From: Parcubacteria group bacterium RIFCSPLOWO2_01_FULL_48_18
GTDB lineage: Bacteria > Patescibacteriota > Minisyncoccia > UBA6257 > WO2-01-48-18
Length of the DNA stretch: 64,000 nucleotides
Direction: 5' to 3'
Assembly (NCBI GenBank): GCA_001824435.1
Contig: MHXH01000016.1
Span: forward strand, 14,970-78,969
Shown piece by piece: positions 797 to 53,775 of this stretch. Below the pieces are notes generated by a model, which was not told the DNA's origin, did not search any database, and was given only the letters and a program-made list of their open reading frames with translations. A program made the translations under genes and the position numbers. Position 1 is the stretch's first letter. Each line of letters starts with the position of its first letter.

Positions 797-1531
797 TTAA
801 AAAAATGAAAATCCTTTCAGGAATTTATCAAAGAATATTGATTCTTCACTATTGTCTTTTATTGGTTCGAAGAAATTGAAATGAACAACATAGAAAAAAT
901 CTTTCGTATCTATCCAAAATTGGTGAGGACAAGTATTGGGATCAACTTTCATTCCATACCATTGGGACGCAGAACATTCCACCGCTCCTTTCCATGTCCC
1001 AGTGTTCATTTGAATTTCTTTCCCAGTAAGACAGTAAACATATTCTTCGTATTGGGATTCACTGGACAAATTTCTACTTCCTGCGGCAACCGGACATTGC
1101 GAATTGGAAGCGAACATTTTTTCATAAGAAGAATCTATCGAAGAAGATATTGGTTTCTTAATAATAGTAATACCACCCACGATAGCTATGACCTCTCCAT
1201 TTTTAATTTCTTGCAATTGAACGAAAGGAAAATGAGTATCCTCGTCTACCTTCCAATAAGCCGGATATTGAAACTCAAGCCCATATTTTTCACTACGATA
1301 CACCTTCCAGTCATCGGTCGATGGCGAGGAGCTCGTCGTTTTATTGGAAGGTTGCGTAGCAGTTTGAGTGGATGTCGGAGTTTTTACTTCATTGGATACA
1401 GGCGCTGGTTGTTGAGTTTGAATTTCCGTAGGAGCCACGGATTTCTTGGAAAAAATGAAATACCCACCGATTGCAACAATAGCAATGACAACGAAAATCA
1501 AAACAATATTTACAAATCCCTTTTGACTCAT
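797..1531 (-). CDS. Hypothetical membrane-anchored exported protein. The likely start is at MSQKGF (1531); the ORF track extends it to 1603.
   Basis: An N-terminal hydrophobic helix (IVLIFVVIAIVAIGGYFIF) is followed by a Thr/Ser/Pro-rich linker and a Cys-containing globular part. Confidence 0.5.
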   Translation of the reverse strand: MSQKGFVNIVLIFVVIAIVAIGGYFIFSKKSVAPTEIQTQQPAPVSNEVKTPTSTQTATQPSNKTTSSSPSTDDWKVYRSEKYGLEFQYPAYWKVDEDTHFPFVQLQEIKNGEVIAIVGGITIIKKPISSSIDSSYEKMFASNSQCPVAAGSRNLSSESQYEEYVYCLTGKEIQMNTGTWKGAVECSASQWYGMKVDPNTCPHQFWIDTKDFFYVVHFNFFEPIKDNSEESIFFDKFLKGFSFF

Positions 1532-1654
1532 ATGATTAAAAATTTTTCTTCCCCCAAAATGCGAAACCGCCAATTCGTTTTTACCCCCAAAATTGAATAC
1601 CAATTAGTCGCCGAGCGAAGCGAGGCGAACCTTTTAAACTTGCAAATTCCTTTC

Positions 1655-1966
1655 TGGTGCCGCGGGAGGGAATCGAACCCCCTACGCCAGCCTCTTCCTG
1701 GCTGATTTTGGACTATATCATCTCCGTTCTTCGCGCAAGAGTGCGGAGTCGGGCGCTTGTGCAAGATTATTGTTGGGACTCACTTGCTAGTCTCTACACC
1801 TTCTAAGAAATCTCCACCGGCTGGCGGAGCCCCCCTTAGCTTGGCTCGGGGTTGTTCTGACGGCATGTCGGAGTGTTCCCCGAATTCACCCGATTTTACA
1901 GTCTGCATTACTGCAGAAAGCCCCAAAGAATTTCAGGGCTGCGCTCTACCAATGAGCTACCGCGGC
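1655..1966 (-). tRNA. tRNA-Phe (anticodon GAA) interrupted by a ~237-nt intron in the anticodon loop. The intron is probably group I.
   Basis: The 5' exon (1966..1930, minus strand) reads GCCGCGGUAGCUCAUUGGUAGAGCGCAGCCCUGAAAU: acceptor stem, U8, D-arm GCUC/GAGC and anticodon stem CAGCC. The 3' exon (1692..1655) reads GGCUGGCGUAGGGGGUUCGAUUCCCUCCCGCGGCACCA: anticodon stem partner GGCUG, T-arm GGGGG-UUCGAUU-CCCUC, acceptor CCGCGGC complementary to GCCGCGG, discriminator A and encoded CCA. The intervening ~237 nt contain a GACUA...GAGUC P7-like pair. Confidence 0.8.
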
Positions 1967-2064
1967 AATCATGTTTAGACTATACCAATTTTTTGATTCC
2001 TTCAATATGCCCCATAATTTTTATGTTTAAGGGTGGGGGGCGGCGCGAAACGAGGTAGGAAACC

Positions 2065-3600
2065 TCACAACTTAATCTGCGCGCGATATACCGCAAAGTT
2101 CTCGCTGTTTTCAAAATCAATCATGTCAACGGATCCGTCGGGATAGACCGCGCCGGCAAGGTCGCGGCGGCCGTTCACTAAAATAGGAACCCCGAGCCAG
2201 GCCGCCTCAATCTGCCGGAGCCAGACGACGGATTCAAGGTATTTTCTAAATCCCGCGATCGCCCAGTTATTGCTGGAAGAATGGATTAAAAACCTTGCTC
2301 CGCGGTCGACGAACTTCTTCGCCACAAACGGATAGTGCAATTCACCGCAGATCGGGGTACCGAATACGATCTCTCCGGCCAGTGAAAAATTTTTCGTTTC
2401 CCCTCCTCTGGCAAACTGCAATCGGGGATCAAATACCGGACTTCGCTTCACAATGTTCGGCACGGTCTCCCGCGCCCAATTAACATAGAAAGGGCGCCAC
2501 TCGCCGAACGGCCAAAACTCGCCTCCATACGCCAGGTATCTCTTTTTGTACACATCAACAATAGAGCCGTCCTGCGCGAAAAGCATCCCCATGTTATAAC
2601 GCTCGCCGCTTGCGACCACCACGGTAGTATAGACCAATACGCGGCTTCTCGTGCTTTTGGCAAATTCACGATACTGCCGTATCAACGTCCCGGCGTTTAC
2701 CACGCCAAATTTTTCAAAAGCCTCTTCGTCACGATCATCCGTATACTCGTTCCTAAAAATATCTTCAGGGAAAACAACCAGATCCGGCGCGCTCTCCGAT
2801 TGCAAAACCCTCTCCTTAATCGGCGCAAGGCGCTGGGCAATCAGACGGCCTACGTGATCCAGCTCTGTCTTACCGAGGCCGTCCGGAAAATCTTCCACTT
2901 CTCTATCAAAGGCTTCGGTGGTCGAGACAAGTAAAATCTCGACGATGTCTTCGCGGCGCTGATATTCTTCGCTGCGGCCGCGAAGAGAAACGCGAGATAG
3001 TACAAAACCCGCAACAAGCAGCACCAGAGCAACGAGTAACCCCCTGCGGCCAGCTGCGTCAAAACTCACGCTAAAAATCCTCGGCGCGCGGGAAAACGAA
3101 ATTGAAAAACGAAGTCTTTTCAACGCAAACAGCAGAGCCGCATTCACGGCCGCAACAAACAACATCAAGAATTCAACGCCGCCGAAACGAGCAAGGCCCA
3201 AAAAGGGACTTGGCGCAAGATTGATGCCAATATCAACGACAAAATAGGGAAGGAGGGTGAGCCGCGACTCCACGTGCTCCCAAAAAGCAAAGAGAGGGGG
3301 CAAGACGCAAAACCATACCAACTCCCGGCCGGTCATTCGTTTTACAAGATATACCGAGAGCGGAAAGCCGAAAAACAAAACCGCAGATTGAAGAAAAATA
3401 ATCGGCTCAAAGGCAACAACAGCAACATATGCCGCAAGCGCAATACGAAACACCAGCGTTCCCGCAAACAATCGCAACAAGCTCCTCTCGCCGAGCACGA
3501 AAGAAAAATAGGGAATTAAAGCAACAAATGCGAAACCGTAAAGCCCAAGCGGCGGATACGACACTATCGCAAGAAGGGCGGATAGAAAACTTAACCACAT
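2065..3600 (-). CDS. lnt: Apolipoprotein N-acyltransferase
   Basis: A multi-TM N-terminal half is followed by a C-terminal carbon-nitrogen hydrolase (nitrilase-like) domain, 511 aa. Confidence 0.7.
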   Translation of the reverse strand: MWLSFLSALLAIVSYPPLGLYGFAFVALIPYFSFVLGERSLLRLFAGTLVFRIALAAYVAVVAFEPIIFLQSAVLFFGFPLSVYLVKRMTGRELVWFCVLPPLFAFWEHVESRLTLLPYFVVDIGINLAPSPFLGLARFGGVEFLMLFVAAVNAALLFALKRLRFSISFSRAPRIFSVSFDAAGRRGLLVALVLLVAGFVLSRVSLRGRSEEYQRREDIVEILLVSTTEAFDREVEDFPDGLGKTELDHVGRLIAQRLAPIKERVLQSESAPDLVVFPEDIFRNEYTDDRDEEAFEKFGVVNAGTLIRQYREFAKSTRSRVLVYTTVVVASGERYNMGMLFAQDGSIVDVYKKRYLAYGGEFWPFGEWRPFYVNWARETVPNIVKRSPVFDPRLQFARGGETKNFSLAGEIVFGTPICGELHYPFVAKKFVDRGARFLIHSSSNNWAIAGFRKYLESVVWLRQIEAAWLGVPILVNGRRDLAGAVYPDGSVDMIDFENSENFAVYRAQIKL

Positions 3601-3753
3601 GGTTTGACGCGGTGCACTAGTCCTCCATTAATTTAATTTTTTCGGGTTCTCTCGATAAAAAACTATGTTTTTTCTTACGCAACCAGCTGTATGATGACGC
3701 CAGAATTAAATTAAAGGAGGACGAGCACGCAAATCTATCATAACAAATCAAGG

Positions 3754-3778
3754 GCCCCGCAGAAACGAACTACGGGGC
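3754..3778. terminator. GC hairpin (GCCCCG...CGGGGC) at the 3' end of plsC
   Basis: A 6-bp GC stem with an 11-nt loop straddles the plsC stop codon. Confidence 0.35.
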
Positions 3779-4507
3779 ATTCAAAAGCTCCTCTAGTCTT
3801 GCCCGCAATGCGCGCGTTATCGCATTGATTTCTTCCTTGCCGGGCTTCTCCATTTGTTCAAATGTCAGTGGCGTACCAATCGTTACGACGACATTTTTGC
3901 CGACCCTGGGAACGCACCCGCGAGACGGAATAAGCTGTGCAGTGCCTCGAAGCGCCACGGGAACAACCGGCGCGCCGCTCATAAGCGCGAGTCGAGCGGC
4001 TCCCGGATAAAATTCTCCAAGAGAACCGTCGACAGGCAGTCGCCCCTCGGGAAAAATCAAGACCCGCTCACCGCTTCGAAGCCGCTCCACAAAAAATTGG
4101 TTCACCGCTTCGTTGACCTCTCGTCTCTTATCGGCCGGACCACCCACTTGAACTGACACCAGCCGTAATGCACGAAACAGCCACCGCAGCCGCGGCAAAC
4201 GCTCGTCGTATCTGCGTGTCACCATGCTGTACGGAAGGGTTGCCTTATCACGAATCATCCGCGGAAAACCGATAATTCCCATATTAATAAGGAAGCCGTC
4301 GATTATGTTTTGGTGATTGCTGTAGAAGATCGCCCCGCGGGGAAACATCCTCTCTCCATTGATACGTACCCGGTTAAGGACGCGAAAGTAGAGCCATCCG
4401 AGGCCGCACAAAACGATAGCGCAGGCCCGCCCTAAGACCGCGGCCACAGCGTACATCGTCTTCCGCATGACACGCCTCGTCTCCGACGATTGATAGCAAT
4501 GATCCAC
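3770..4507 (-). CDS. plsC: 1-acyl-sn-glycerol-3-phosphate acyltransferase
   Basis: An HxxxxD acyltransferase motif (NHQNIIDGF) and an FPEGR motif. Confidence 0.75.
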   Translation of the reverse strand: MDHCYQSSETRRVMRKTMYAVAAVLGRACAIVLCGLGWLYFRVLNRVRINGERMFPRGAIFYSNHQNIIDGFLINMGIIGFPRMIRDKATLPYSMVTRRYDERLPRLRWLFRALRLVSVQVGGPADKRREVNEAVNQFFVERLRSGERVLIFPEGRLPVDGSLGEFYPGAARLALMSGAPVVPVALRGTAQLIPSRGCVPRVGKNVVVTIGTPLTFEQMEKPGKEEINAITRALRARLEELLNAP

Positions 4508-4615
4508 AGAACAGCATACTTCGACGGGCGATCATTTGTCAACAAAAATACTCAAGGGTCCGTACCTTGGGATCCGCACCTTACTCAAGAGAAGCTGCCG
4601 GCCCTTACCAAAAAA

Positions 4616-4733: not shown

Positions 4734-5528
4734 ATGGAAGCCGTTTCTTTTCCGAGAAAACTGGCAGCCGCACTTATACTGATTGCCGGCATTGCGGGAT
4801 TGTATGCGAGCGTTGCTCCGAATACGTTTTGGGCATTATTCTCCAAAGACAAAGAGGGCGCGGGCAGAGACGCCATTACAGCATACCTCGCGCCATCAGC
4901 GCAAGAATCGCAAAAACCGCTCTATGTCGAACCATACGGAGACGCCGCGGCTGCTGCGTCCGACAACCTTACCGGCCTGCTCGCTGACACACTGTCAGAT
5001 CAGCTCATGGCCGACGTCGGCGCCGAGAGCTTCCTGGGAGAGGGCAGCGCAGACATCTCGGAAACGCTCCCGGACTATTCCACTCTTCTAGAAAACGAAC
5101 TCGCCAAGGTCGATCCCTCCCGCATTTTCAAGGCAGGAGCATTTGACATCGTTGTCATCAACGACAATAGCCGCGAAGCAAAAAAGAAATATGACGAACG
5201 CGTAACGCCGGTCGTGGAAAAAATCTTCGCGGGCCTCAATGACAATGCATCGTCATTTTCGGAAAAAGACCTCGCCCAAGTCGTCGATAACCACAACGCG
5301 GCCATCACCATCGCTCTCGCAACGCCGGTGCCGAACGACTGGGCAGAATACCACAGAAAGGGAGTTGCCTATCTGATGGAACGAAGGGAGATTTTTCAGG
5401 CGCTTAGCGCCGTACACGACGATCCGGTAAAATCGCTTGCCGCGCTTCAATACCTCAACGCGTTCGAAGTCGAATTTACGCAATATCTAAAAGAGTATTC
5501 GGAAATCATAAAGGGCGCGACACAATGA
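4734..5528 (+). CDS. Hypothetical membrane-anchored protein, first gene of the T4SS-like locus
   Basis: An N-terminal hydrophobic segment is followed by an acidic, Ala/Asp-rich soluble region. Confidence 0.45.
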   Translation: MEAVSFPRKLAAALILIAGIAGLYASVAPNTFWALFSKDKEGAGRDAITAYLAPSAQESQKPLYVEPYGDAAAAASDNLTGLLADTLSDQLMADVGAESFLGEGSADISETLPDYSTLLENELAKVDPSRIFKAGAFDIVVINDNSREAKKKYDERVTPVVEKIFAGLNDNASSFSEKDLAQVVDNHNAAITIALATPVPNDWAEYHRKGVAYLMERREIFQALSAVHDDPVKSLAALQYLNAFEVEFTQYLKEYSEIIKGATQ

Positions 5529-5590
5529 AACCCTCATGCCTATCAACAGGGCGGGGCATACATTAATCTGCAATCTGCTATAATCAAACT

Positions 5591-7003
5591 ATGGGCGCCG
5601 CGAAAATAACGGTCCTGGCAATCATCGTCGCAGTCCTCGCGCTGGCGCCGCTTTCATTTTCGCCGCCGGGCATGCACGGCGCCTCCTCAATAATCACGCG
5701 CCAAGATGCCCTTGCCGGAGGACTAGCGGGCATCATACACGACCCAATCAGCAATATCAGAAGAATCATCGAATACATCGCGGGCAACGTTGGAAGGGTT
5801 CTCCTGGAAGCGCTTAAGCAAAAAGCTCTCGAGATGCTGACGCAAAAAATGACCGCGTATATCAGCAACAAGGGCGGGGTCCCGAGATACGTTACCAACT
5901 GGCAAAAAGAATTAGGCGATGCGTTCGGCACCGGGGCAGGAAGATTTGTCGACGAAGTTTCAGGGCTCGTACTATCAAATAAGCTCTGCCAAAATTTGCA
6001 GCAACCGGTGCTCGCCGCATTGAAAAATTTTCAATTCCAAAGCCCGTACGGCACAAGGAACGCCTGCAAGCTTAGCACCGTTGTTTCCAATGCCAATGCG
6101 TTCTTTGGAGACTTTTCCAAGGGCGGATTTGTGGCTTACAACACCCTCATGCAGCCGGAGGGCGGAGGCAATATCTACTGGGGCCTTATTACCGCAATGC
6201 AAGAAATGCGCGCGCGGGGGGACGCAGAAGCAGATGCGGCAAAATCCTCTGCAGAAGCGGGGAGCGGACTTAAAGACATAAAATACTGCCCCCCTGCGCT
6301 GTGGCAAGCAAGCTGGATCAAGGGCAAGAGCCTGCCCTATTCAGATCCTACGTGGGAACAACACTGCATATCTCCGAAGGTGACCACGCCCGGGAGCGCC
6401 AATTACGAAATGGTCGCGAGCGTCATGGACAAAGAAAAGGCGCAAATCGTCAACTCCGAATCTCTCGCCAAGGCGCTTACCGGCATTATTGCCAACTCGC
6501 TTGCGAGCAAACTAACCAAACTCGGGGAAAAAGGGCTATTTCAGGTCACAGAAACAACATCAACGGCGATCGATGTCTGTCAAGGACTTACCGGAGAGGA
6601 CCTCGTCTTCTGCCAAGCGACAAAGGATCCTCCGAATATCACCGCTGCCCGCAGCGCGGCTCTTACCGAGATAAACAAGCGGCTTAACGATTACAGCACC
6701 TATATTTCCGATCTAAAGTTGCTGCAAACGTGCCAGAGGGGCTTGTGTATCAAACGCGGGGGCAGCGCGTTGAGCACTTGTACGCTTGTATCTCCGCCTA
6801 TGAGCGACACGCAGAAAAAGATCGACGAAGCAACCTCGGTGAAAAACTCGCTGACTTCCGCAAAAAGCACAGTATCCACTGCAACTGACCCGCAGGCAAT
6901 TCTGCTTGCATACTCCAGCATCAAAGGATTGGGCAGCATTATTTCCATCCAAGACACTAAGAATCAGCTGGCGCAATGCCAGACAGACCTGGCTGCGCCG
7001 TAA
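5591..7003 (+). CDS. Hypothetical secreted Cys-containing protein with a signal peptide
   Basis: Signal peptide MGAAKITVLAIIVAVLALAPLSF. A TATAAT element lies 7 nt upstream of the ATG. It is co-oriented with the T4SS-like genes. Confidence 0.45.
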   Translation: MGAAKITVLAIIVAVLALAPLSFSPPGMHGASSIITRQDALAGGLAGIIHDPISNIRRIIEYIAGNVGRVLLEALKQKALEMLTQKMTAYISNKGGVPRYVTNWQKELGDAFGTGAGRFVDEVSGLVLSNKLCQNLQQPVLAALKNFQFQSPYGTRNACKLSTVVSNANAFFGDFSKGGFVAYNTLMQPEGGGNIYWGLITAMQEMRARGDAEADAAKSSAEAGSGLKDIKYCPPALWQASWIKGKSLPYSDPTWEQHCISPKVTTPGSANYEMVASVMDKEKAQIVNSESLAKALTGIIANSLASKLTKLGEKGLFQVTETTSTAIDVCQGLTGEDLVFCQATKDPPNITAARSAALTEINKRLNDYSTYISDLKLLQTCQRGLCIKRGGSALSTCTLVSPPMSDTQKKIDEATSVKNSLTSAKSTVSTATDPQAILLAYSSIKGLGSIISIQDTKNQLAQCQTDLAAP

Positions 7004-7007
7004 CATT

Positions 7008-9209
7008 ATGAAAAGGAAAATGTCAAAGCTTCTCCCCATTGCATTCTTTACCGTACTAATAACGGTGAGTTTACTGATTCCAGCAGACGCGCACGCTTGG
7101 ATACATGATGAAATCGCCAGCGCATTAGGAGGCGCAGTTCTCGATGTTATGTCTTTCTTCATAGGAATGGTAGCAAGCATTCTGGGTATTTTCGTGTCGA
7201 TAGCCACGATCTTTACCGGCGCGATGCTTAAGATAAACTTCGATGTTTTAAAAAACCCGGTGGCCACGGTCGGATGGGTCGCAACCAGAGATTTTGCCAA
7301 TCTGGGATTCGTACTGGTGCTTCTGATTATCGCCTTCGCGACAATTCTGCGGATCCAAAGCTACGGCATGAAAAGCCTTTTGTGGAAACTTATTATCGCC
7401 GCAGTGCTTGTCAACTTCAGCTTTACCATTGCCGCAGCCTTTATAGACTTCAGCCATATTCTCGCAAAAACTTTCATGAACAGGTCATTACCCCAAGGCC
7501 TATCCGGGCCCATGGACTACGGCACCCATCTTGCCGGAAATCTCAATCCTCAAGCGCCCTACGCTGTCGCGAGCAGCGCATCGGCGCTGGCTAAAACCGC
7601 AAGCTTTACGTCCTTGTTCCTTTCGGTTCTCTTCGGATTCGTATTTGCCATACTCTATACTCTCATTCTCATAGTCGTGATAAGTGCGCTGGGCGTCCTT
7701 TTCGTCGTACGGTTTGTACACCTCACATTTCTACTCGTCCTTGCGCCGCTTGCATGGCTCTTTTGGGCAACTCCAATGTTAAGCCACCTTGCAAAACAAT
7801 GGTGGAACTCGTTTTTACGGTGGGTCTTTTTCGCTCCGGCAGCGCTCTTTTTCATTTGGCTCTCGCTTAAAATTAGCACGCAGGCAGGTGCGCAAAAATG
7901 GTTTGAGGATACCGACGCATCACTTATAAAAGCAGGCGTAGCTACCAAGCTAGATAGTTCTATTCTTACCGGAAACCTCCTGACAAGCCTCGCAAACATG
8001 TTCCTTCTAGGCAGTCTTCTTGTCGGAAGTGTTATCGTGGCGGACAAAATGGGGGTAGACGGAGCGCGCGCAGCAGTTAACGCCGCCACTAAGGTTCCGC
8101 GGGCTACGGCCGAATTTTTGAAACGGCGCGGCGCCCTGCTTAAAAACAAGGCCCTTCAAAAGGCAATGGAAAGCAAGGCGGGTAAAAAAGTGGCGGGCGC
8201 ACTCCAAGCAATCCCGCTTTTCGGAGGCATTGTAACCCCCGCCCTAGCAGATCTTAGGGCCGGGGCCAAAGGAAAAGAAGTAGAGTTCTATCAGGAGAAA
8301 TATGCAAATTATGACCAACAGCAACTCGAGGCTGCCATGCGGCAGACAAAGAATTCTGCAGAAGCCGCTGCCCTGTCGGGTATTGCCGGTAAGAAAGGGT
8401 TTTTGCGCGCTGCCAATACAAACCTTAGTAGGAAGGAGAGGCTGCAATTGGCCGTAGTCGCGGATCAGGCTGGCCTTGCCCCAGATGGAACAAAACACTC
8501 AGACCAGATTGTAAAAGGTGACCCGACTCTAGCGTACAATATAGCCAGACTAGCTGGGAAAAACGATGAAGATAGCATGGCCGAAATGAGCAAATTTATG
8601 AAAGAAAAGATGTCTCCCGAGGATATAGCCAGAATGGACCCTTCGGCAGCCGACTTTGATCCCAAGAAGGACATTGCTGATCCTAAAAATATTGAAAATC
8701 GCCTCAGGCTTCACGTTGCTCTTTTGCTAGACACGGGTAGGCTTGGACGCGTAATCAGCGAGGGTGGGCCAGCGGTTGACTCCATTGAAAAAACTCTAAA
8801 GTGGGCACGGGCTAATCGGGACGAGGTGAAAAAAGAAGACGCCATACTCAAACTACCCCCGGATAAATCCAGAGAGAGAAGTATGGACAGACTGCTGGAC
8901 TATTGGGAACAGTCTCCTGTTACGGCTGGCCGTAAACTGCCGGTCGCTGCAGAAGAAATTAAATATAATGCCGCCGAAACATTCGGCAACGCCGACAACC
9001 AACGCACGGTCAAAATGGTACTAAGCCTAGACATCGGACGGCTCGACGAAATCATAAAAGACCCGAATCCTCTGGTACCCACCAACTTCAAAGACACCCT
9101 ACAGCAGATTAAGAGCAATATAAACCTCCTAACCGACCAAGAAAAGAAACGGATCGGGGGCCACATTAGGTACTGGAACTCTCTTAATTCCGCTAATCAA
9201 ATTACGTAA
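7008..9209 (+). CDS. VirB6/TrbL-like polytopic membrane protein with a long hydrophilic C-terminal extension
   Basis: A signal/TM segment, then at least 6 predicted TM helices across the first ~330 aa, then a ~400-aa Lys/Asp/Ala-rich tail. It sits upstream of the VirB3- and VirB4-like genes. The start was set to ATG 7008 to avoid overlap with the preceding stop. Confidence 0.45.
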   Translation: MKRKMSKLLPIAFFTVLITVSLLIPADAHAWIHDEIASALGGAVLDVMSFFIGMVASILGIFVSIATIFTGAMLKINFDVLKNPVATVGWVATRDFANLGFVLVLLIIAFATILRIQSYGMKSLLWKLIIAAVLVNFSFTIAAAFIDFSHILAKTFMNRSLPQGLSGPMDYGTHLAGNLNPQAPYAVASSASALAKTASFTSLFLSVLFGFVFAILYTLILIVVISALGVLFVVRFVHLTFLLVLAPLAWLFWATPMLSHLAKQWWNSFLRWVFFAPAALFFIWLSLKISTQAGAQKWFEDTDASLIKAGVATKLDSSILTGNLLTSLANMFLLGSLLVGSVIVADKMGVDGARAAVNAATKVPRATAEFLKRRGALLKNKALQKAMESKAGKKVAGALQAIPLFGGIVTPALADLRAGAKGKEVEFYQEKYANYDQQQLEAAMRQTKNSAEAAALSGIAGKKGFLRAANTNLSRKERLQLAVVADQAGLAPDGTKHSDQIVKGDPTLAYNIARLAGKNDEDSMAEMSKFMKEKMSPEDIARMDPSAADFDPKKDIADPKNIENRLRLHVALLLDTGRLGRVISEGGPAVDSIEKTLKWARANRDEVKKEDAILKLPPDKSRERSMDRLLDYWEQSPVTAGRKLPVAAEEIKYNAAETFGNADNQRTVKMVLSLDIGRLDEIIKDPNPLVPTNFKDTLQQIKSNINLLTDQEKKRIGGHIRYWNSLNSANQIT

Positions 9210-9220
9210 GCTTTAACCAC

Positions 9221-9571
9221 ATGCTTTCCCGCCAACAAGTAACCCAAAAACTTTCCACGCTCCCTCCTGACATTAGAGAATGGCTTATTTCTCCTGAAGT
9301 TGCTTTTTACATACGGAAGTTGGGGCAGGACCTTGAACTGGTCCGCGTCCAGACCGAACGGATTTCCGAGCTGATTTTAAGCGTCGCAGTCGGCGCAATT
9401 ACAGCCACAGAATGCCTAAACACTCTACAGGAAGATCTGGCCTTGAAACCGGAGACCGCCAGAAGGGTGGCAGAGCGGATTTACACCGAAATATTCAGCC
9501 GCATACAAGGCTCGTTGTTAAAACTCGGGGTTGATATACGAGGACTCGTGCGCCCGCAAGGGCCGTCGTAG
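9221..9571 (+). CDS. Hypothetical protein (116 aa)
   Basis: ORF in operon context with no recognisable motifs. Confidence 0.35.
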   Translation: MLSRQQVTQKLSTLPPDIREWLISPEVAFYIRKLGQDLELVRVQTERISELILSVAVGAITATECLNTLQEDLALKPETARRVAERIYTEIFSRIQGSLLKLGVDIRGLVRPQGPS

Positions 9572-9644
9572 AAATTAACTTTACGCTCGGATCTGCCCTC
9601 AACCTAGCCCCCGGGTGCGGGCTGCTCCGGCGTTATTAAATTGC

Positions 9645-9980
9645 ATGGACGCCCCCCCAAACGAAAAACCCAAAGACGAACCTGCGCCGTTCATTATAGG
9701 CGTTGGTTTTGCCGCTCCGGCGGCTCCGGCAACAGGAGAAGACTCTTCTGAAAAAAAACCAGAGGGGATCCCCACGGCCGAACCACAGGATAAATCCTTC
9801 GACGCGGCTACTTCGACTACGCTCAGTACGGGCCAGGATAAACCCCACATGCTTTTTACAACCGGAGCTGAAAAAATTAAGCCGATCTCCGAAAGCAGGC
9901 GGCCGTCAATGGGCCCGGTAGTTCTGGAAAAACAGAAGAAGGAAACGCCGAAAGCGAGAATAGAACTTCCGGAAGAGTAG
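9645..9980 (+). CDS. Hypothetical Pro/Ala-rich small protein with an uncertain start
   Basis: Low-complexity ORF. The track starts it at 9615, and MDAPP at 9645 is a plausible alternative. Confidence 0.3.
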   Translation: MDAPPNEKPKDEPAPFIIGVGFAAPAAPATGEDSSEKKPEGIPTAEPQDKSFDAATSTTLSTGQDKPHMLFTTGAEKIKPISESRRPSMGPVVLEKQKKETPKARIELPEE

Positions 9981-10030
9981 ACCCTAGACCTTAGGCTTTA
10001 GGCTCTAGGCTTTAGGTTTTAGGTTTTAGA
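9978..10030. repeat. Tandem heptamer array (TTAGGCT/TTAGGTT ...), left flank of four-helix-bundle cassette 1
   Basis: Direct reading: tagaccctagaccttaggctttaggctctaggctttaggttttaggttttag. Confidence 0.7.
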
Positions 10031-10086
10031 CGTTGCGTTAGACGCGGAAAAATTAGGATGTAATTTCTAAACCTCTAAAAGCCGAC

Positions 10087-10442
10087 ATGCACACTTATAA
10101 AGACCTTATCGTCTGGCAGAAGTCTATAGAACTGGTTACAAAAATATACCTCTTGACAGAAGGCTTTCCAAAAGAAGAAATCTATGGCCTAACGTCGCAA
10201 ATGAGACGCGCTGCCGTATCCATAGCTTCGAATATTGCTGAAGGCAGGCTACGAGGACATCCAAAAGAATTTAAGCAGTTTTTATTAACTGCTTATGTGG
10301 CTCTGGCGGCGAACTAGAAACACAGATTGAAATCGCCAAACGCCTACCCACCACAAGACGCCTCGATTACACAAGAACAGACGCCCTGCTTAGCGAGGTG
10401 ATGAAAATGTTAAATGCGATGATCTCAAGGACTAGCGCCTAA
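10087..10442 (+). pseudogene. Four-helix-bundle protein (23S rRNA intervening-sequence protein / Avd-like family), frameshifted
   Basis: The N-terminal 76 aa (YKDLIVWQKSIELV...GLTSQMRRAAVSIASNIAEG) match the family. The conserved C-terminal part (GSGGELETQIEIAKRL...MLNAMISRT) continues in another frame after a 2-nt indel near 10297-10300. Confidence 0.65.
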
Positions 10443-10474
10443 CGCCTAGCGCCTAACGGCCTAGCGCCTAAACC
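10429..10474. repeat. Tandem heptamer array (CGCCTAA/CGCCTAG), right flank of cassette 1, inverted relative to the left flank
   Basis: Direct reading. Its reverse complement (TTAGGCG...) mirrors the TTAGGCT array at 9978..10030. Confidence 0.65.
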
Positions 10475-11122
10475 ATGCAGTTTCAAATCCCCCAATTCAT
10501 CGAGACGGAAGATAAAATTGTCGGGCCGTTTACGCTCAAGCAGTTTTTATATTTTGCCGGCGCCGGAGGCATCAGTTTCGTCCTTTACTTCACGCTCAAT
10601 TTTTTCTTCTGGTTTATGATCACATTTTTCCTCGCGCTCGTCGCCGTCGGATTGGCATTTGTCAAGATCAACGGCCTGCCGCTCATCAAAATCCTCATGG
10701 CGGCAGTTGGTTTCATGATGAAGCCGCGGCTCTACGTCTGGCAGAGGCGGCTGGAAGGAAAAACCGTCGAGGTTCCCGAAGACGAGGACGAAGAAACGCC
10801 GGAAAAAGAAAAACCAGCCGAAGACGGGCATCGCCCGGCAATAAGCGGCAGCTTGAGTTCATTGGCCGAAAAGTTGAAAACCGGAAGCTCGTACATTCCA
10901 AAAAGAGAACAACCCATGCCGAGCCGGTTTTCGACGTATACCGCGGCCCCGCCAGCCGCCACCGCTCCGGCCCCAAAAACTGACAACCCACACCAACAGG
11001 CTCCGCAGCCAATCGAAAACCCGACAACACAACCTACGCCGCAACAAAACAACCAGTATGTTGAACTAGAACTGCCCAGCGGAGAAATACAAAAAGCGAA
11101 ACGAGTGGACTATGGTGAATAG
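10475..11122 (+). CDS. PrgI/VirB3-like small membrane protein with a Pro/Gln-rich C-terminal tail
   Basis: The N-terminus (QIPQFIETEDKIVGPFTLKQFLYFAG) plus two TM helices resembles the PrgI (VirB3-like) family. It lies immediately upstream of the VirB4-type ATPase. Confidence 0.5.
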   Translation: MQFQIPQFIETEDKIVGPFTLKQFLYFAGAGGISFVLYFTLNFFFWFMITFFLALVAVGLAFVKINGLPLIKILMAAVGFMMKPRLYVWQRRLEGKTVEVPEDEDEETPEKEKPAEDGHRPAISGSLSSLAEKLKTGSSYIPKREQPMPSRFSTYTAAPPAATAPAPKTDNPHQQAPQPIENPTTQPTPQQNNQYVELELPSGEIQKAKRVDYGE

Positions 11123-11150
11123 ACTAAAGTTGAAAGTTGTAAGTTGAAAG
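11123..11150. repeat. AAGTTGAAAG-type tandem repeat, left terminal repeat of four-helix-bundle cassette 2
   Basis: aaagttgaaagttgtaagttgaaagg. It is the reverse complement of the array at 11591..11623. Confidence 0.65.
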
Positions 11151-11222
11151 GGGTGGATTACAACGAGTAGATTCAAGTTATACGAAGGAGCTAGTTAACC
11201 ATTGATATGATAAAATAAGTAT

Positions 11223-11606
11223 ATGCCGGTAGAAGACCTTGAGGTGTACAAGAAACTTTGCGAACTCGCGCTAGAAATCCATGGAGCTACATTGTCCTTC
11301 CCGCGATTTGAATTGTACGAACTGGGTTCTCAACTAAGACGCTCCTCGAACTCCGCGCCCGCAAACCTCGCTGAAGGCTTCGGTAATAAACACACTAACA
11401 TCTACTTGGAAAGTATCAGCCGGGCGCAAGGAGAAATAAGAGAAACGATACGTCATCTGCGAATGGCCCATCAGAAACAATATATTGTTAAAGAAAAATT
11501 CGAATATTTTATACATGCGTGCCGCGAAAGCTCAAAGATGCTCTACGGACTTGAACGGGGATTAGTACACTCGAAGGCTTTTAAAAATACTACCTTACAA
11601 CTTTAA
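11223..11606 (+). CDS. Four-helix-bundle protein (23S rRNA intervening-sequence protein / Avd-like family), intact and divergent
   Basis: DLEVYKK...FP..ELYELGSQLRRSSNSAPANLAEGFG...GEIRET..HL matches the family pattern. Confidence 0.6.
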   Translation: MPVEDLEVYKKLCELALEIHGATLSFPRFELYELGSQLRRSSNSAPANLAEGFGNKHTNIYLESISRAQGEIRETIRHLRMAHQKQYIVKEKFEYFIHACRESSKMLYGLERGLVHSKAFKNTTLQL

Positions 11607-11623
11607 TCTTTCAACTTTAATCT
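11591..11623. repeat. CAACTTTAATC tandem repeat, right terminal inverted repeat of cassette 2
   Basis: ccttacaactttaatctttcaactttaatct. Its reverse complement shares AAAGTTGAAAG and AAGTTGTAAG with the left repeat. Confidence 0.65.
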
Positions 11624-12280
11624 ATGGTCAACGCGAAACCGGCTACTCAACAAATAGTCGAAATAAAAGAAATTAAGGACGATATCGTATATCTCAAGGG
11701 CGGCGGACTGCGCGCCGTGATTATGGTTTCCGGCGTCAATTTCGACCTGAAATCCGAAGAAGAACAGAATATCCTTCTCTACGGCTATCAAAGTTTCCTT
11801 AATTCGCTTGATTACTCGTTCCAAATCGTTGTTCACTCACGGAAGTTAAACATCGACGGCTACTTGGAAATGCTCCGGCAACGCGAGTTGCAGGAGCAAA
11901 ACGAACTCCTCAAGGCGCAAGTCGCCGAATACGTGGAATTCGTAAGCTCGTTCGTACAGATGAACGCCATCATGTCAAAAACATTTTACGCAGTCGTCCC
12001 GTACGACGTCATCCAGGTAGGGTCAAAAACCATTGCCGGCCTCGGAAGCCTTATGGAAGGAGGATCAAGGGCGCCGGTTGCAACAACAAAGGAAGAAGAC
12101 GAAACCGTAAAAATAACCCAGCTCGAACAGCGAGTCGAACAAGTTCTGGGAGGCATCCGCAGAATGGGACTCCGGGCGGTTCGCCTCAATGCGCAGGAGC
12201 TCATTGAGCTCTACTACAATTTGTATAACCCGGAGGAAAAAGAACGGACGCTCGCAATTGCAAAAGATATGACTACATAG
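11624..12280 (+). CDS. VirB4/TraE-type conjugal-transfer ATPase, N-terminal domain fragment (218 aa)
   Basis: LKGGGLRAVIMVSGVNFDLKSEEEQ is typical of the N-terminus of Gram-positive-type VirB4 proteins. It ends at a TAG immediately before a 93-bp inverted-repeat element. It is in the same frame as 12374..14188. Confidence 0.6.
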   Translation: MVNAKPATQQIVEIKEIKDDIVYLKGGGLRAVIMVSGVNFDLKSEEEQNILLYGYQSFLNSLDYSFQIVVHSRKLNIDGYLEMLRQRELQEQNELLKAQVAEYVEFVSSFVQMNAIMSKTFYAVVPYDVIQVGSKTIAGLGSLMEGGSRAPVATTKEEDETVKITQLEQRVEQVLGGIRRMGLRAVRLNAQELIELYYNLYNPEEKERTLAIAKDMTT

Positions 12281-12373
12281 TCGTATACAGCTTGTAGCTG
12301 GTAGCCGGTAGCTTCTTAATCGTGGTTTAACTTATTACCAAAAAGCTACAAGCTAAAAAGCTACAAGCTAATC
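12281..12373. mobile_element. 93-bp (31-codon, in-frame) inverted-repeat element splitting the VirB4 gene
   Basis: The left end has cagcttgtagctggtagccggtagc and the right end has aaagctacaagctaaaaagctacaagct, forming AGCTTGTAGCT / AGCTACAAGCT inverted repeats. It carries three in-frame stop codons. Confidence 0.55.
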
Positions 12374-14188
12374 ATGGGTTTCATCAATCCGTTTGGCGCG
12401 TCGTCGCCAAAACAAAAAATCGCTGTTCCTACCGCATACGAGATGGGCGGTAAGGACATCAAGGACATAATTTCTCCGCCGGCGCTTGAAATCGAGTCGA
12501 ACTTCCTCAAGCTCGGCAAGAAATTCGTCAAGAGCTACTTCGTATTCACCTATCCCCGCTTTCTTGTCAGCGGCTGGTTTTCTCCGATCATCAACATGGA
12601 CAAGGCGATGGATATCGCCATTTTCGTCCATCCAATCGAAACCGCAACAGCGCTGAAAAAGCTCCGCAGAAAAACCGCTCAAGTCCAAGCGCAGCTCGCC
12701 GAGCGGGAAGAAAAAGGATACGTATCCGACCCGGCGCTCGAAACCGCCTACCAGGACATCGAATCGCTCCGCCAATCGCTCCAGCAATCAACGGAACGCC
12801 TCTTCAATGCAGGGCTGTACTTCACCCTCTACGGAGACACGCTTGAAGAAATAAACGCCGTGGAGTCAAAGATCGTTTCAATCCTCGAGGGCCAGATCGT
12901 GTACACCAAGCCGTGTCTCTTCCAACAGTATGAAGGATTCGTATCAACGCTACCGCTCGGACACGACAAAATACTCATACACACCCCGCTTAATTCCGGA
13001 CCCATTTCTTCGTTCTTCCCGTTCGTTTCTTCTGACCTTACGTCAGACAAGGGTATTCTCTACGGCATCAACCGCCACAACAACAGCCTCGTCATATTTG
13101 ACAGGTTTTCAATGGAAAACGCGAACCAGGTCCTGTTCGCCAAGTCCGGTTCCGGGAAATCCTATACCACTAAGCTCGAAATCCTGCGCTATCTTATGCT
13201 CGGCACCGACATCCTCATCATCGATCCGGAAAACGAGTATCAGAATCTTTCGGACACCGTAGGCGGCGCGTTCTTCAAAATATCCCTGACATCCGATTAC
13301 CACATCAACCCATTCGACATCCCGAAAATTCCGAAAGGAGAAGACCCGGGAGACGTCTTGCGTTCGCATATCGTCAATCTCTCCGGCCTCCTCAAACTAA
13401 TGCTCGGTGGCGTAACGCCCGAGGAAGACGCCGTGTTAGATCGGGCTATCACCGAAACCTACGCCTCACGCGACATCACGCCTGACGCCGACTTTTCGGG
13501 GAAAACGCCGCCGCTCATGCAAGATCTCCAAACCGTGCTTGAAAACATGGAAGGCGCAAAAGACGTTGCCGCAAAATTGGAAAAATATACCAAAGGAACG
13601 TACAGCACGTTCATCAACCAACCGACGAACATCGACGTCAAAAACCGGCTTATCGTATTCAGCTTGCGCGACCTGGAGGACCAGTTGCGGCCGATGGCGA
13701 TGTACATCGTGCTCAATTTCATCTGGGGACTTATCCGCGCAGAGCTTAAACGCCGCCTCCTCATTATCGACGAGGCGTGGTGGATGATGAAAAGCGAAGA
13801 CAGCGCGTCATTTCTCTTCGGCCTGGCCAAGCGCGCGCGGAAATATTACATGGGGGTAAGCACCATCACGCAAGACGTGGAGGACTTTCTAAAGTCACCG
13901 TACGGAAAACCGATCATCACCAACTCGGCAATTCAGATCCTCCTCAAACAGGCGCCTTCTTCTATCGACGCGGTGGCCAAAACATTTAACCTCACCGAAG
14001 CAGAAAAACAACTATTGCTTGAAAGCGGAGTGGGGGAAGGATTGTTTTTTGCCGGACTCAAGCACGCAGCCATCAAGGTCATCGCTTCCTACACCGAAGA
14101 TCAAATCGTCACCACCAACCCGCAACAAATCATGGAGCAACAAAAGCTGTCGGAGCAAATAGAAAAAATGAAGGAAAAAACAAACTAA
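12374..14188 (+). CDS. VirB4/TraE-type conjugal-transfer ATPase, C-terminal ATPase portion (604 aa)
   Basis: Walker A FAKSGSGKSYT and Walker B LLIIDEAWWMM. The YPRFLVSGWFSPII segment is typical of VirB4 just after the N-terminal domain. Confidence 0.75.
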   Translation: MGFINPFGASSPKQKIAVPTAYEMGGKDIKDIISPPALEIESNFLKLGKKFVKSYFVFTYPRFLVSGWFSPIINMDKAMDIAIFVHPIETATALKKLRRKTAQVQAQLAEREEKGYVSDPALETAYQDIESLRQSLQQSTERLFNAGLYFTLYGDTLEEINAVESKIVSILEGQIVYTKPCLFQQYEGFVSTLPLGHDKILIHTPLNSGPISSFFPFVSSDLTSDKGILYGINRHNNSLVIFDRFSMENANQVLFAKSGSGKSYTTKLEILRYLMLGTDILIIDPENEYQNLSDTVGGAFFKISLTSDYHINPFDIPKIPKGEDPGDVLRSHIVNLSGLLKLMLGGVTPEEDAVLDRAITETYASRDITPDADFSGKTPPLMQDLQTVLENMEGAKDVAAKLEKYTKGTYSTFINQPTNIDVKNRLIVFSLRDLEDQLRPMAMYIVLNFIWGLIRAELKRRLLIIDEAWWMMKSEDSASFLFGLAKRARKYYMGVSTITQDVEDFLKSPYGKPIITNSAIQILLKQAPSSIDAVAKTFNLTEAEKQLLLESGVGEGLFFAGLKHAAIKVIASYTEDQIVTTNPQQIMEQQKLSEQIEKMKEKTN

Positions 14189-15944: not shown

Positions 15945-17042
15945 ATGAAAAAAGTTATTGTTATATTCATCTTAGTACTCATGCTCGCTGCCGCTGTCGG
16001 CGCCATGATTATATTGAGTAAGCGATCGGCGCAGGTCATTACGCAAGAGCGCGCCGTGGAAGAACAGAAAAAAACCGAAGAGCAGAAAAAGCAGGATCCA
16101 CTCAAACGACTTTCCGGCCAGCCGGCACTCGGTTTTTGGTTCTCGCAGGACACGCTATATTACCTCAACGGCGCCGGACAGATTTATTCCGTTAACATCC
16201 AGAACGGCGAGGAAAAGCAAGTCTCTTCCTACGCGATAGAAAACGTGCGAGCCATCACGCCCTCTGCGAAAGGGGATGGAGCGCTCATAACCTTTTCCGA
16301 CCGCGGAGAAAATCTGGTAAGCATGTATCGCGTCGCGGAAAATTCCTGGACGCCGCTCGACAAGAATATACGGTCTGCCGCATGGTCTCCTGACGGCCAA
16401 TGGCTGGCGCAATTACGGGAAACGTTCGGCGGTGTGCTCGTCCTTGAGCTTGTCAAGCTCTCCGGCGGAGAAAGAACCGAGCTCGCCCGCCTATCCATGC
16501 GCGACGCGCGCCTTACCTGGATCGGCGGACAACAACTCATTGTCTCGTCTCCTCCTTCGAAAGATTTTCCGGCCCCTGCGCTCACAATCAACGTCCTAAC
16601 AAAGACCGTCTCGCCGCTCGCGCTTGAAAAACCGGGGCTTTCATTCGCATGGTCAGCGTCAGGTAAACAAGCTCTCGCGTTCTGGGTCGATGACAACGGC
16701 AAAAATCAAACTGCGCTTGTCAATGATTCGGGAGTCGTCCTCAAAAATTTCCAGACGCCACTCCTACCGCACAAATGCGCGTTCAGCGGAGAACAACAGC
16801 TGTACTGCGGCGTGCCGGCAAATGTAAACCTTGCCACCGTGGCCGATTTACCCGATGCATACCTTATGCAAAAGGTTCGTCTTGTGGATCACGTAGCACT
16901 CGTCGACGCACAAACGTCACGTCTCAAGATTATCTTCTCTCGTCAAGAACCCTCGCTCGATATTTACAAACCTCACGTACACGACAACAAACTTTTCTTC
17001 ATCAACCGCTACGATGGCGCCATCTACTCGTTGGAGTTGTAA
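15945..17042 (+). CDS. Membrane-anchored beta-propeller-like (TolB-like) protein, last gene of the locus
   Basis: An N-terminal TM helix and a Lys/Glu linker are followed by repeated strand-rich segments containing WSPDG / AWS motifs. Confidence 0.4.
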   Translation: MKKVIVIFILVLMLAAAVGAMIILSKRSAQVITQERAVEEQKKTEEQKKQDPLKRLSGQPALGFWFSQDTLYYLNGAGQIYSVNIQNGEEKQVSSYAIENVRAITPSAKGDGALITFSDRGENLVSMYRVAENSWTPLDKNIRSAAWSPDGQWLAQLRETFGGVLVLELVKLSGGERTELARLSMRDARLTWIGGQQLIVSSPPSKDFPAPALTINVLTKTVSPLALEKPGLSFAWSASGKQALAFWVDDNGKNQTALVNDSGVVLKNFQTPLLPHKCAFSGEQQLYCGVPANVNLATVADLPDAYLMQKVRLVDHVALVDAQTSRLKIIFSRQEPSLDIYKPHVHDNKLFFINRYDGAIYSLEL

Positions 17043-17126
17043 GTTGCAAGTCGACAGCGGAAAGTTAAAAACCGGACGCAGGAACCGGTTTTTTAATCTT
17101 TCAGCTCACAACTTTAATCTTTAATC
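17033..17126. mobile_element. Cargo-less copy of the AAGTTG inverted-repeat element with an embedded bidirectional terminator hairpin
   Basis: The left end (agttgtaagttgcaag...ggaaagtt) and right end (cacaactttaatctttaatc) match the terminal repeats of cassette 2. The centre is AAAAACCGG-N9-CCGGTTTTTT (17066..17096). Confidence 0.55.
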
Positions 17127-17132
17127 CGATCG

Positions 17133-24586: not shown

Positions 24587-24667
24587 TGAAATAGAGTGTT
24601 TAGCGCTTAGCGTTCAGCGTTTATCCGCCAGCCGGCGGACTAATCGCCATACTCCATACCCTAAACC
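24587..24667. repeat. Intergenic repeat element: heptamer arrays (TAGCGCT..., CCCTAAA x2) flanking the 16-bp palindrome TCCGCCAGCCGGCGGA (24624..24639)
   Basis: Direct reading. Confidence 0.6.
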
Positions 24668-29272: not shown

Positions 29273-29379
29273 GTTCTTGGAATTTGGAATCTTGAATTTG
29301 GAGCTCGGAAGCCCTAACCCTTGAACCCCGAATTCAGATTCTAATTCTAAATTCTAAATTCTAAATTCCAGATTCTTTT
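29273..29379. repeat. Heptamer tandem arrays (GAATTTG..., ATTCTAA x4)
   Basis: ggaatttggaatcttgaatttggag ... attctaattctaaattctaaattctaaattcc. Confidence 0.6.
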
Positions 29380-29847: not shown

Positions 29848-29944
29848 CCTAGCTTTTTAGCTTCTTAGCCTTTTAGGGAAGCTTGTCGATATGGCGTTCT
29901 CAACAGCTCTAATAAGCTACAAGCTAGTAAGCCACCAGCCTTAC
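29848..29944. repeat. Tandem array (AGCTTTTTAG/CTTCTTAG/CCTTTTAGG) plus AGCTACAAGCTA motif shared with the VirB4-splitting element
   Basis: Direct reading. Confidence 0.55.
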
Positions 29945-53225: not shown

Positions 53226-53353
53226 TAATCTGATGAGGTCGCCAGCGGTAATTCTATACTTGTACTACGAAACAGCATTGCGGATCTCCGATTTTTCGAG
53301 TATCTCAATAATATTCTAACATTCTCAAGAATGTCAGAATATTGTGGCAGGAC

Positions 53354-53641
53354 ATGACGGACAAAGTCAAAAATCAAAAACAAATGGAACGGCACTTTAA
53401 GGGCGTAGCAAATCACCGCCGCATTGAGATTCTTATGGTTATCGCCGAACACGAAGGAGTTACGCTGGACAACCTATCGCGCATCGTTTCGTGCAATTTT
53501 AAAACGCTTTCCGAACATACGCGCCGGCTCGTCCAAGCCGGTTTGATAAATAAGAAATACCACGGACGGTTTGTCCGCCATACACTCTCGCCATATGGCA
53601 GAATGTTCTATAAGTTTATCGTGACGCTCCGACATTCTTGA
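53354..53641 (+). CDS. ArsR-family HTH transcriptional regulator
   Basis: A winged-helix core (LDNLSRIVSCNFKTLSEHTRRLVQAGLI). Imperfect palindromes ACATTCT..AGAATGT lie at 53310..53343 and 53631..53659. Confidence 0.6.
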   Translation: MTDKVKNQKQMERHFKGVANHRRIEILMVIAEHEGVTLDNLSRIVSCNFKTLSEHTRRLVQAGLINKKYHGRFVRHTLSPYGRMFYKFIVTLRHS

Positions 53642-53775
53642 GAATATTAGAATGTTATGTGGTAGGGATAATGGAAATGTGAAGTCGTAAATTCCCGCGA
53701 CATTTCGCTGAGTGGGATAAATATAAGAGGTGCCACGGGGCGTAGGAATGGAATGAGGGTGTCGCCGTTCACATA

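Follow-up and report, generated by a model that had tools for sequence, protein, structure and literature searches.

Four-helix-bundle gene cassettes between inverted heptamer arrays in a Parcubacteria secretion operon share the design of 23S rRNA intervening sequences

Intervening sequences (IVSs) of 23S rRNA that carry S23p open reading frames (ORFs) are known (PMC4990558), as are 23S_rRNA_IVP ORFs within rRNA insertions of the candidate phyla radiation (CPR) (PMC11270868). In Coxiella, the IVS is reported to contain three tandem GACAGAT heptamers whose copy number differs between strains; RNase III cuts at the first heptamer repeat, and for elements in rRNA helices excision of the RNA has been demonstrated experimentally (PMC4990558). 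Here we analyse a 64-kb stretch of DNA (the window) from a groundwater metagenome-assembled genome, Parcubacteria group bacterium RIFCSPLOWO2_01_FULL_48_18, in which two genes of the TIGR02436/PF05635 four-helix-bundle (4HB) family each lie between inverted arrays of tandem heptamers inside a type IV secretion system (T4SS) operon. Our best reading is that these two cassettes are members of a widespread class 0.4–0.55 kb in length, one decaying and one intact, and we consider it very probable that they belong to the same element class as the IVSs and were mobile in the past. Comparison loci are identified by L-numbers.

Some other described systems share part of this organization. REPIN–RAYT systems comprise a single small gene flanked by inverted repeats, with ORF-less hairpin derivatives dispersed in intergenic spacers; RAYT belongs to the Y1 (HUH) transposases, and its REP sequences are conserved. 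The Correia (NEMIS) elements of Neisseria, which insert at TA, have terminal inverted repeats (TIRs) and are co-transcribed with their neighbours, the TIR stem being cut by RNase III; their TIRs are conserved, and they have neither an ORF nor a tandem-heptamer structure. Heptamers in convergent pairs are found in Xanthomonas, with 70–75 pairs of GGGAATC per genome, and heptamer arrays in Nostoc too (PMC4692102), while TAACTGA arrays occur in Beggiatoaceae, cyanobacteria and Bacteroidetes (PMC4679880). Like the arrays described below, these repeats and the short tandemly repeated repetitive (STRR) sequences of cyanobacteria are intergenic tandem heptamers, often in convergent inverted pairs; they often end approximately 1 nt before a start codon and vary in length between relatives. 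The reports on them, however, draw no link to 4HB genes, GxxExxY genes or IVSs.

The T4SS operon appears as a run of same-strand genes at 9500–12400 of the window. Cassette 1 (9978–10474, plus strand, as are all features of this operon) follows a gene for a 121-aa protein without a family assignment (9615–9980), whose TAG stop codon (9978–9980) is the first triplet of the left terminal array. This array (9978–10031) consists of approximately seven tandem heptamers of the form TAGACCC/TTAGGCT/TTAGGTT (Tandem Repeats Finder, TRF: 9984–10031, TTAGGCT × 5.6). The right terminal array (10432–10471; CTAGCGC/CTAACGC, TRF period 7/15) is its inverse and ends 3 nt ahead of the ATG of a PrgI family gene (10475–11122), whose match to PF12666 (E = 3.9e-11) agrees with the VirB3-like gene previously placed between the cassettes. 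The TAG stop of this gene (11120–11122) in turn lies within the left inverted arm of cassette 2 (11120–11625). Here the left array (11119–11151) is AAAGTTG × 3.6 (TRF 11126–11150), and the right array (11593–11625) reads CTTACAA CTTTAAT CTTTCAA CTTTAAT CTA, overlapping the 3′ end of the 4HB ORF as well as the first base of the downstream ATG (A, 11624). TRF reports the latter at 11594–11623 with a 14-nt unit, equal to two heptamers; the decamer AAGTTGAAAG first suggested as the repeat unit of cassette 2 is thus replaced by a heptamer. A TraC-like gene (11624–12280; PF26593) and a VirB4-like ATPase gene (12374–14188; TraG P-loop, E = 1.3e-30) follow. In both cassettes the arrays occupy the whole spacer from the upstream stop codon to the downstream ATG, and the 4HB ORF terminates within the right array.

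The arms of cassette 2 (11119–11151 and 11593–11625) are complementary at 85% over 33 nt, and those of cassette 1 (9985–10013 and 10427–10455) at 76% over 29 nt, with a 19-nt core at 89%. The reverse-complementary flanks called for by the original prediction are therefore present as inverted arms, with the proviso that their complementarity is imperfect. Together with the TRF calls and the profile scores given below, this establishes two 4HB cassettes bracketed by inverted short-tandem-repeat arrays. The array motifs occur 9–10 times in the window against an expectation of 1.5–1.9. A search of the region and its arrays against Rfam returned no family, even at E ≤ 1, and a scan of 9200–12600 for promoters and terminators gave nothing decisive. 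Array copy number varies in the population: one slightly divergent contig (L010) lacks two units of the cassette 2 right array.

Both genes score well above the curated cut-offs of the two family models to which they had been assigned. For PF05635 (cut-off 33.8 bits), the N-terminal ORF of cassette 1 (10087–10317, 76 aa) scores 91.7 bits (E = 4.1e-26) and the intact gene of cassette 2 (11223–11606, 127 aa) 94.8 bits (E = 4.5e-27); for TIGR02436 (cut-off 24), the values are 87, with the frame of cassette 1 repaired, and 119.5 bits. They are the only two 4HB genes in the 64 kb and are distant paralogues of each other (E ~ 1e-8). An AlphaFold2 monomer model of the cassette 2 protein (pLDDT 90.3) is a four-helix bundle with helices at residues 2–23, 28–50, 58–84 and 90–126. 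Foldseek aligned it best with XCC0516 (PDB 2GSC; TM-score 0.79–0.92), which is also matched in a profile search (E = 4.6e-10), and BT_0352 (2RLD; 0.71–0.86). The cassette-2 subfamily is under purifying selection (dN/dS 0.12–0.14), and its proteins are basic (pI ~8.9). PADLOC gave no defence-system match for the cassettes or the 4HB protein, and a role in defence was set aside.

Next in the Foldseek ranking come the Avd proteins of diversity-generating retroelements (DGRs; 4DWL and 8UBB, TM-score 0.70–0.87), in line with the shared fold noted at the outset, at a sequence identity of 8–12%; a relation between PF05635 and Avd is already known (PMC10053308). Avd resembles the 4HB protein in fold and in being basic, and a weak PHROG match to DGR Avd (E = 1e-4) points the same way, so one could imagine the cassettes as Avd genes left behind after loss of a reverse transcriptase. 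We rejected this as highly improbable. No reverse transcriptase is present among the genes called within 10 kb, as the original prediction had it; the bAvd model PF22296 reaches 19.7 bits against a threshold of 40; the window holds short direct repeats only and no template/variable repeat pair; and a plasmid with a true DGR Avd also has a separate 4HB cassette of the design described here.

The lesion in cassette 1 is a 2-nt TG insertion at ~10297–10300, a TG duplication that gives TATG-TG-GC. Its removal restores a full-length protein, ‘...LLTAYGSGGELETQIEIAKRL...ISRTSA*’, which contains the family motif GSxxELxTQ and terminates in a TAA (10440–10442) inside the right array, so that the gene as a whole spans 10087–10442. 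Nine retrieved loci, drawn from seven contigs that belong to separate samples, are 100% identical over the surrounding 3 kb, and the two contigs of slightly divergent sequence that span the site (L008 and L010) have the insertion as well. Since every independent assembly covering it carries the insertion, the suspected indel is a genuine mutation rather than a sequencing error, and the 4HB gene of cassette 1 is a true pseudogene. Programmed frameshifting was rejected, as a slippery site is absent and the lesion is a TG duplication. One of the two divergent contigs (L008 1–700; ena:ERZ28563641 scaffold_55323) has tsaE, a TAGGAGA × 3 array and a different 4HB 5′ half (~70–80% identical) joined to the cassette 1 3′ half, frameshift included. 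At this junction either two cassettes have recombined or the assembly is chimeric over the sequence that they share.

A match in design comes from plasmid AZO_p2 of Azospirillum lipoferum 4B (L180), where an IVS lies inside the large-subunit rRNA match (1286–4484). It is an element of ~470 nt with a 4HB ORF between arms at 2439–2474 and 2872–2907, which are complementary at 86% over 36 nt and are themselves period-7 arrays of 3.9 and 4.1 copies. The ORF-bearing IVSs of Leptospira, Coxiella and Azospirillum share with the cassettes the ORF family TIGR02436/PF05635, a size of ~430–510 nt, terminal inverted arms enclosing the ORF, built of tandem heptamers in Azospirillum as seen here and in Coxiella as reported (PMC4990558), and sense orientation within a long transcript. 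An IVS-like gene-within-inverted-repeat architecture in the spacers between protein genes, as had been proposed, is well matched by an IVS of this design and size. The cassettes differ from IVSs in lying between protein-coding genes and touching their stop and start codons, rather than in 23S helix 25 or 45, and in having miniature and nuclease-bearing relatives alongside. RNase III excision has been shown for the IVS, whereas for the cassettes it would follow by homology. No rRNA similarity was found in the window or in any of the approximately 160 metagenome and T4SS loci examined.

We explored the generality of the architecture in 80 orthologous T4SS loci from other Patescibacteria, with VirB4 proteins 59–70% identical. 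Approximately 10 of the 80 carry cassettes, with 12 4HB genes altogether, at three junctions: before PrgI, before the TraC-like gene and before VirB4. The usual spacer at these junctions is 1–30 nt, compared with 420–500 nt where a cassette is present. All 12 genes are bracketed by inverted tandem heptamers, and each cassette has its own heptamer (GCCACTA, CAGCTTT, GAAGTAA, GAGTTAC, GTTGTAA, GTCGTTA and AAAATGA are examples). Inverted-flank scores of the 4HB ORFs lie at, above or just below the 99th percentile (16.5), approximately the top 1.3% of 2475 ORFs. Eleven of the 12 fall within 3.5 kb upstream of VirB4, a region (~2500–6000 in L013–L092) that makes up 26% of the sampled sequence (p = 3e-6, for cases that are not all independent). 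This clustering points to a hot spot or to hitch-hiking with a T4SS module that spread by horizontal transfer.

Metagenomes were then scanned with a profile of the cassette-2 subfamily, the one 4HB subfamily sampled in this way, yielding 80 loci at 62–77% identity. Almost all of these are bracketed, and elements measured 400–550 bp. Over the non-redundant cassettes of the whole study, 71 of 75 had an inverted-flank score of at least 14, and 7 was the best period in 123 of 128 arrays. In a count of tandem arrays by period, 33 were of period 7 as against 3–5 for periods 6, 8 and 10. Arrays have a median length of approximately 3.5 units and extend to 12 or more. The subfamily's ends (TAGATTAAAGATTTAAGTTGTAAG ... 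CTTAAATCTTTAATCTA) and the ends of cassette 2 are related, and within one subfamily related arrays (TAGATTAAAG...CTTTAATCTA) adjoin many unrelated flanking genes, among which translated starts identify fmt, adk, atpD neighbours and T4SS genes. Related cassettes with related arrays are thus found in dozens of unrelated gene contexts, which, with the sporadic filling of orthologous T4SS loci, supports the small mobile cassette family that had been suggested. Protein identity correlates with heptamer similarity (Spearman 0.50; Mantel 0/999), indicating that arrays are inherited together with the gene. The alternative that slippage-prone intergenic simple repeats lie beside small genes by chance could appeal to heptamer arrays that have no 4HB gene, but arrays enclose practically all of the 4HB genes examined, one arm is the inverse complement of the other and array type is inherited with the gene; these association statistics refute it, and we regard it as having next to no likelihood.

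Inverted arrays also surround five of six plasmid cassettes examined in cyanobacteria and Gemmatimonadota. In Anabaena sp. 90 plasmid pANA02 (L179, 44157–44976) a 4HB gene between cas6 and cas4 has GGTGACA arrays of 30 nt on one side and 222 nt (~32 units) on the other; Picosynechococcus has a cassette between cmr2 and cmr3, and Geminocystis one between parA and parB. In Calothrix the gene lies between two toxin-secretion genes on opposite strands, and the arrays are still there, whereas one Nostoc copy has non-complementary arrays. The arrays of Gemmatirosa kalamazoonensis plasmid 1 (L178, ~430–1000; GGGCAGGA / CTCCTGCC) have a period of 8, so the repeat length is not strictly fixed across phyla. 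IMG/VR contained no relative of the cassettes and hence no phage copies, and phage were discarded as a vector.

Cassettes are strictly oriented. In 48 cases the genes on both sides point the same way as the cassette; in 10 they are mixed, and in none do both oppose it. The upstream stop, usually within the left arm, is TAG in 31 of 48 (25% background, p = 9e-9). At one junction (L070) the presumed original TAA persists just 3′ of the element, which implies that an element is able to supply the upstream stop codon. Stops in all three frames are present in 54% of left arrays compared with 24% in shuffles (p = 3e-6). On the other side, the ORF stop abuts the right array (mode 0 nt) and the downstream start is mostly 0–5 nt from the right arm. 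Shine-Dalgarno (SD) motifs are nearly absent at the T4SS junctions (7 of 111 in L014–L092), where a TATAAT-like box often stands 6–8 nt before the ATG, and in two loci (L097 and L148) the cassette is placed between the TATAAT box and the ATG. These sequence features suggest that initiation in these Patescibacteria may be leaderless or otherwise SD-independent.

An alternative is that the elements benefit the host as an expression module, with the hairpins serving as operon punctuation (mRNA processing or stability, or stop–start coupling) and the 4HB protein as an RNA-binding factor. The exact fit of hairpins to stop-to-start spacers, whether or not an ORF is enclosed, the stop-rich left arrays, purifying selection on the protein, fixation in the population (below) and the T4SS enrichment (11 of 12, p = 3e-6) would all accord with this. 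We nevertheless find it improbable, because 70 of 80 orthologous operons work with spacers of 1–30 nt and no element, cassette 1 is retained though its gene is a pseudogene, the contexts (cas, par, def-fmt, atp and rRNA) are unrelated to one another, and the same chassis serves a second gene family, unrelated to the first.

That second family was found in the top-ranked VirB4 locus (L013), where GxxExxY (PD-(D/E)XK_3) cassettes occupy the same two T4SS junctions as the cassettes of the window. They lie at 4076–4571 and 5214–5681 (TIGR04256, E = 1e-17 and 2e-29) between inverted heptamer arms complementary at 83% over 46 nt and at 77% over 39 nt. A third GxxExxY cassette (L144, 3245–3728) has arms of 43 nt at 86%.

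There are also ORF-less miniatures, in which inverted heptamer arrays enclose only a short loop. Four are present in the window; fold z-scores of miniatures run from −2.5 to −4.5. The first (12281–12373, plus strand; z = −4.5) has AGCTTGT... and ...ACAAGCT arrays and fills the spacer between the TraC-like and VirB4 genes exactly; two other loci (L021 and L054) have a full cassette at this junction. A second (17030–17128, plus strand; GAGTTGT AAGTTGC ... CAACTTT AATCTTT AATC) is of the cassette 2 heptamer family and lies between convergent genes, the TAA stop of the upstream one (17040–17042) falling within the left array. On the minus strand, a third (24587–24667), whose arms TTTAGGG... and ...GCTAAAC are similar to the family of cassette 1, takes up the spacer that separates two minus-strand genes, from an M16 peptidase to an AI-2E transporter, and the TTGGAAT/ATTCTAA arrays of a fourth (29273–29379) fill that between minus-strand genes for a RecO-like and a DUF11 protein. 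Five further loci (L031, L058, L061, L065 and L088) contain ORF-less miniatures, and in the last a miniature and a full cassette have common termini, including a 21-nt exact match. We read the miniatures as probable derivatives of full cassettes. The original prediction took it that the repeats do not flank genes regardless of content. This holds in part: arrays do occur without a 4HB gene, in miniatures and in GxxExxY cassettes, and these extend the family rather than refute the cassette reading.

We think it reasonably probable, on the whole, that the cassettes are IVS-type selfish elements that reside in mRNA operons, are looped out by the array stem and are probably cut by RNase III. Both minimum-free-energy and centroid folds close each cassette by an array–array stem, the outcome that had been looked for in the flanking repeats, and the whole-cassette fold of cassette 1 has a z-score of −2.65. 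A model in which mobility is linked to RNA would agree with the strict sense orientation and with the occurrence in rRNA.

Several observations weigh against this interpretation. For cassette 2, folding of the whole cassette shows no gain in stability over shuffles (z = −0.64). Across 65 cassettes, arm mismatches carry no sense-strand RNA signature, with 86 G:U-compatible and 110 A:C, and two thirds of them are transversions; given the lack of a G:U excess, arm complementarity looks like that of diverging DNA inverted repeats and not of a selected RNA helix. A search of the window for an RNase III signature found no match, which is uninformative for the whole genome. Right arrays show no stop-codon enrichment relative to shuffles. 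We know of no catalytic activity for the 4HB protein, and the cassettes encode no transposase, integrase or reverse transcriptase, their sole ORF being a 4HB gene without a catalytic domain. Heptamer arrays also occur singly beside housekeeping genes. The ends of the elements are uncertain by a few bases, and the target-site duplications that the original prediction had proposed to look for did not materialize: neither junction listings nor comparisons of filled and empty orthologous junctions, at ~70% identity, gave a consistent one. Cassette 2 is present in 18 of 18 contigs with an identical TraC-like protein, and because it is fixed in all of them, recent movement is not seen. With no target-site duplication or present-day polymorphism found, we infer mobility from distribution rather than observing it.

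Some of these points would sit more comfortably with a DNA transposon of the REPIN/RAYT or MITE type (MITEs being miniature transposable elements with inverted repeats). Here the heptamer arrays would be reiterated binding sites of the encoded protein, a 4HB pentamer or, in sister elements, the GxxExxY nuclease, with DNA being cut or copied and the RNA stem incidental. As in such elements, there are terminal inverted repeats and several copies with common ends in one genome, miniatures as well as full elements; like REPIN–RAYT, the cassettes have a small gene within inverted repeats and ORF-less derivatives in spacers of the same genome. Arm mismatches of random type, co-divergence of arrays and protein, and a nuclease-fold protein in the sister cassettes all favour this view, as does a TA dinucleotide next to each end in about half of the AGATT-type elements. 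The cassettes differ from REPIN–RAYT, however, in having element-specific tandem heptamers as ends and a four-helix bundle or PD-(D/E)XK nuclease as protein. A consistent target-site duplication was not found, the 4HB protein lacks a catalytic motif and gave no match to PADLOC or to a transposase, and sense orientation of 48 to 0 is unexpected unless selection removes the rest. Moreover, rRNA helices harbour elements of the same design, and excision from the RNA has been shown there by experiment (PMC4990558), and many heptamer families occur per genome, including miniatures without a cognate protein in view. A DNA transposon is therefore an unlikely explanation, if one that we take seriously.

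Returning to IVS-type elements of mRNA operons, a unit comprises a left array of 3–6 tandem heptamers, a small ORF and an inverse-complement right array, and it has inserted in sense where one operon gene stops and, a few bases on, the next one starts. Its left end often supplies the upstream stop, typically TAG, and its right end abuts the downstream ATG. In the operon transcript the arrays would pair into an imperfect stem of 30–50 bp that loops the cassette out and juxtaposes the host stop and start codons. RNase III would probably cut this stem, by homology with rRNA IVSs. After cleavage, the neighbours could remain expressible in an SD-less, leaderless-prone lineage, and the insertion would be tolerated. 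It may be RNase III processing that makes insertion tolerable, a part of the scheme about which we are somewhat more sceptical than not.

The cassettes also invite comparison with integron cassettes, which likewise are small promoterless sense genes with imperfect inverted repeats conserved in structure and not in sequence (attC). They differ in having no integrase or attI, in repeats that bracket the gene on both sides rather than a single attC, and in being scattered singly in operons instead of stacked in arrays. With DGRs they share neither a reverse transcriptase nor template/variable repeats. In the literature, outside subscription-only papers and database family notes, we found no link of 4HB or GxxExxY genes to flanking heptamer arrays, no report of such cassettes in operon spacers and none of their ORF-less derivatives. 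Elements of the IVS type that lie outside rRNA and have a defined array chassis thus appear to be new here, as we found no prior description of them.

A broader and more doubtful proposal, which we hold rather unlikely, is that 4HB and GxxExxY cassettes form a new superfamily of transposase-less mobile cassettes whose ring-shaped protein binds its own heptamers, perhaps with one subunit per repeat, as TRAP binds its triplet repeats. Such elements would colonize hairpin or junction sites in abundant transcripts, that is, rRNA helices and operon spacers, and the STRR, Xanthomonas and Beggiatoaceae repeats would be their footprints or miniature derivatives.

A few arrays and repeats in other settings were recorded along the way. 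In one locus (L065, 12423–12984) an SSB gene lies between two AGGTTGT arrays in direct, not inverted, orientation. A period-8 array (TAGCTTTT × 3.4) at 29850–29876 of the window, on the 5′ side of the RecO-like gene, has no obvious inverted partner, and no inverted partner was seen for an ACCAATT × 2.7 array in a DGR avd–reverse transcriptase spacer (L179, 10109–10127), 9 nt before the reverse transcriptase start. At 53308–53658 of the window, a winged-helix (MarR/ArsR-like) gene (53354–53641) lies inside a non-heptameric inverted repeat (53308–53338 and 53628–53658; 31 nt, 90% complementary), perhaps a pair of operators or a small cassette of another kind. Finally, a group I intron (1687–1944, minus strand; Rfam RF00028, 51.8 bits) lies between PsbP-like and Lnt-like genes, and a weak tRNA match (1909–1966, 19.3 bits) overlaps its 5′ end. 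ARAGORN called no tRNA anywhere in the window; the site may be an intron-split tRNA gene.

The 4HB and GxxExxY proteins are among the commonest unexplained small genes annotated in Patescibacteria, cyanobacteria and Bacteroidota; rRNA IVSs have been known since approximately 1990 without a mobility mechanism, and catalogues of tandem heptamer repeats go back decades but offer no explanation. If small genes, IVSs and heptamer repeats are indeed one element class, each would become testable via the others. The statistical linkage of 23S_rRNA_IVP to CRISPR is known (PMC10910872), and spurious associations of this family with CRISPR-cas, partition and secretion operons would be explained. Cassettes would also flag a source of metagenome mis-assembly and recombination, as at the L008 junction, and would show how compact SD-less operons tolerate 0.5-kb insertions between coupled genes.

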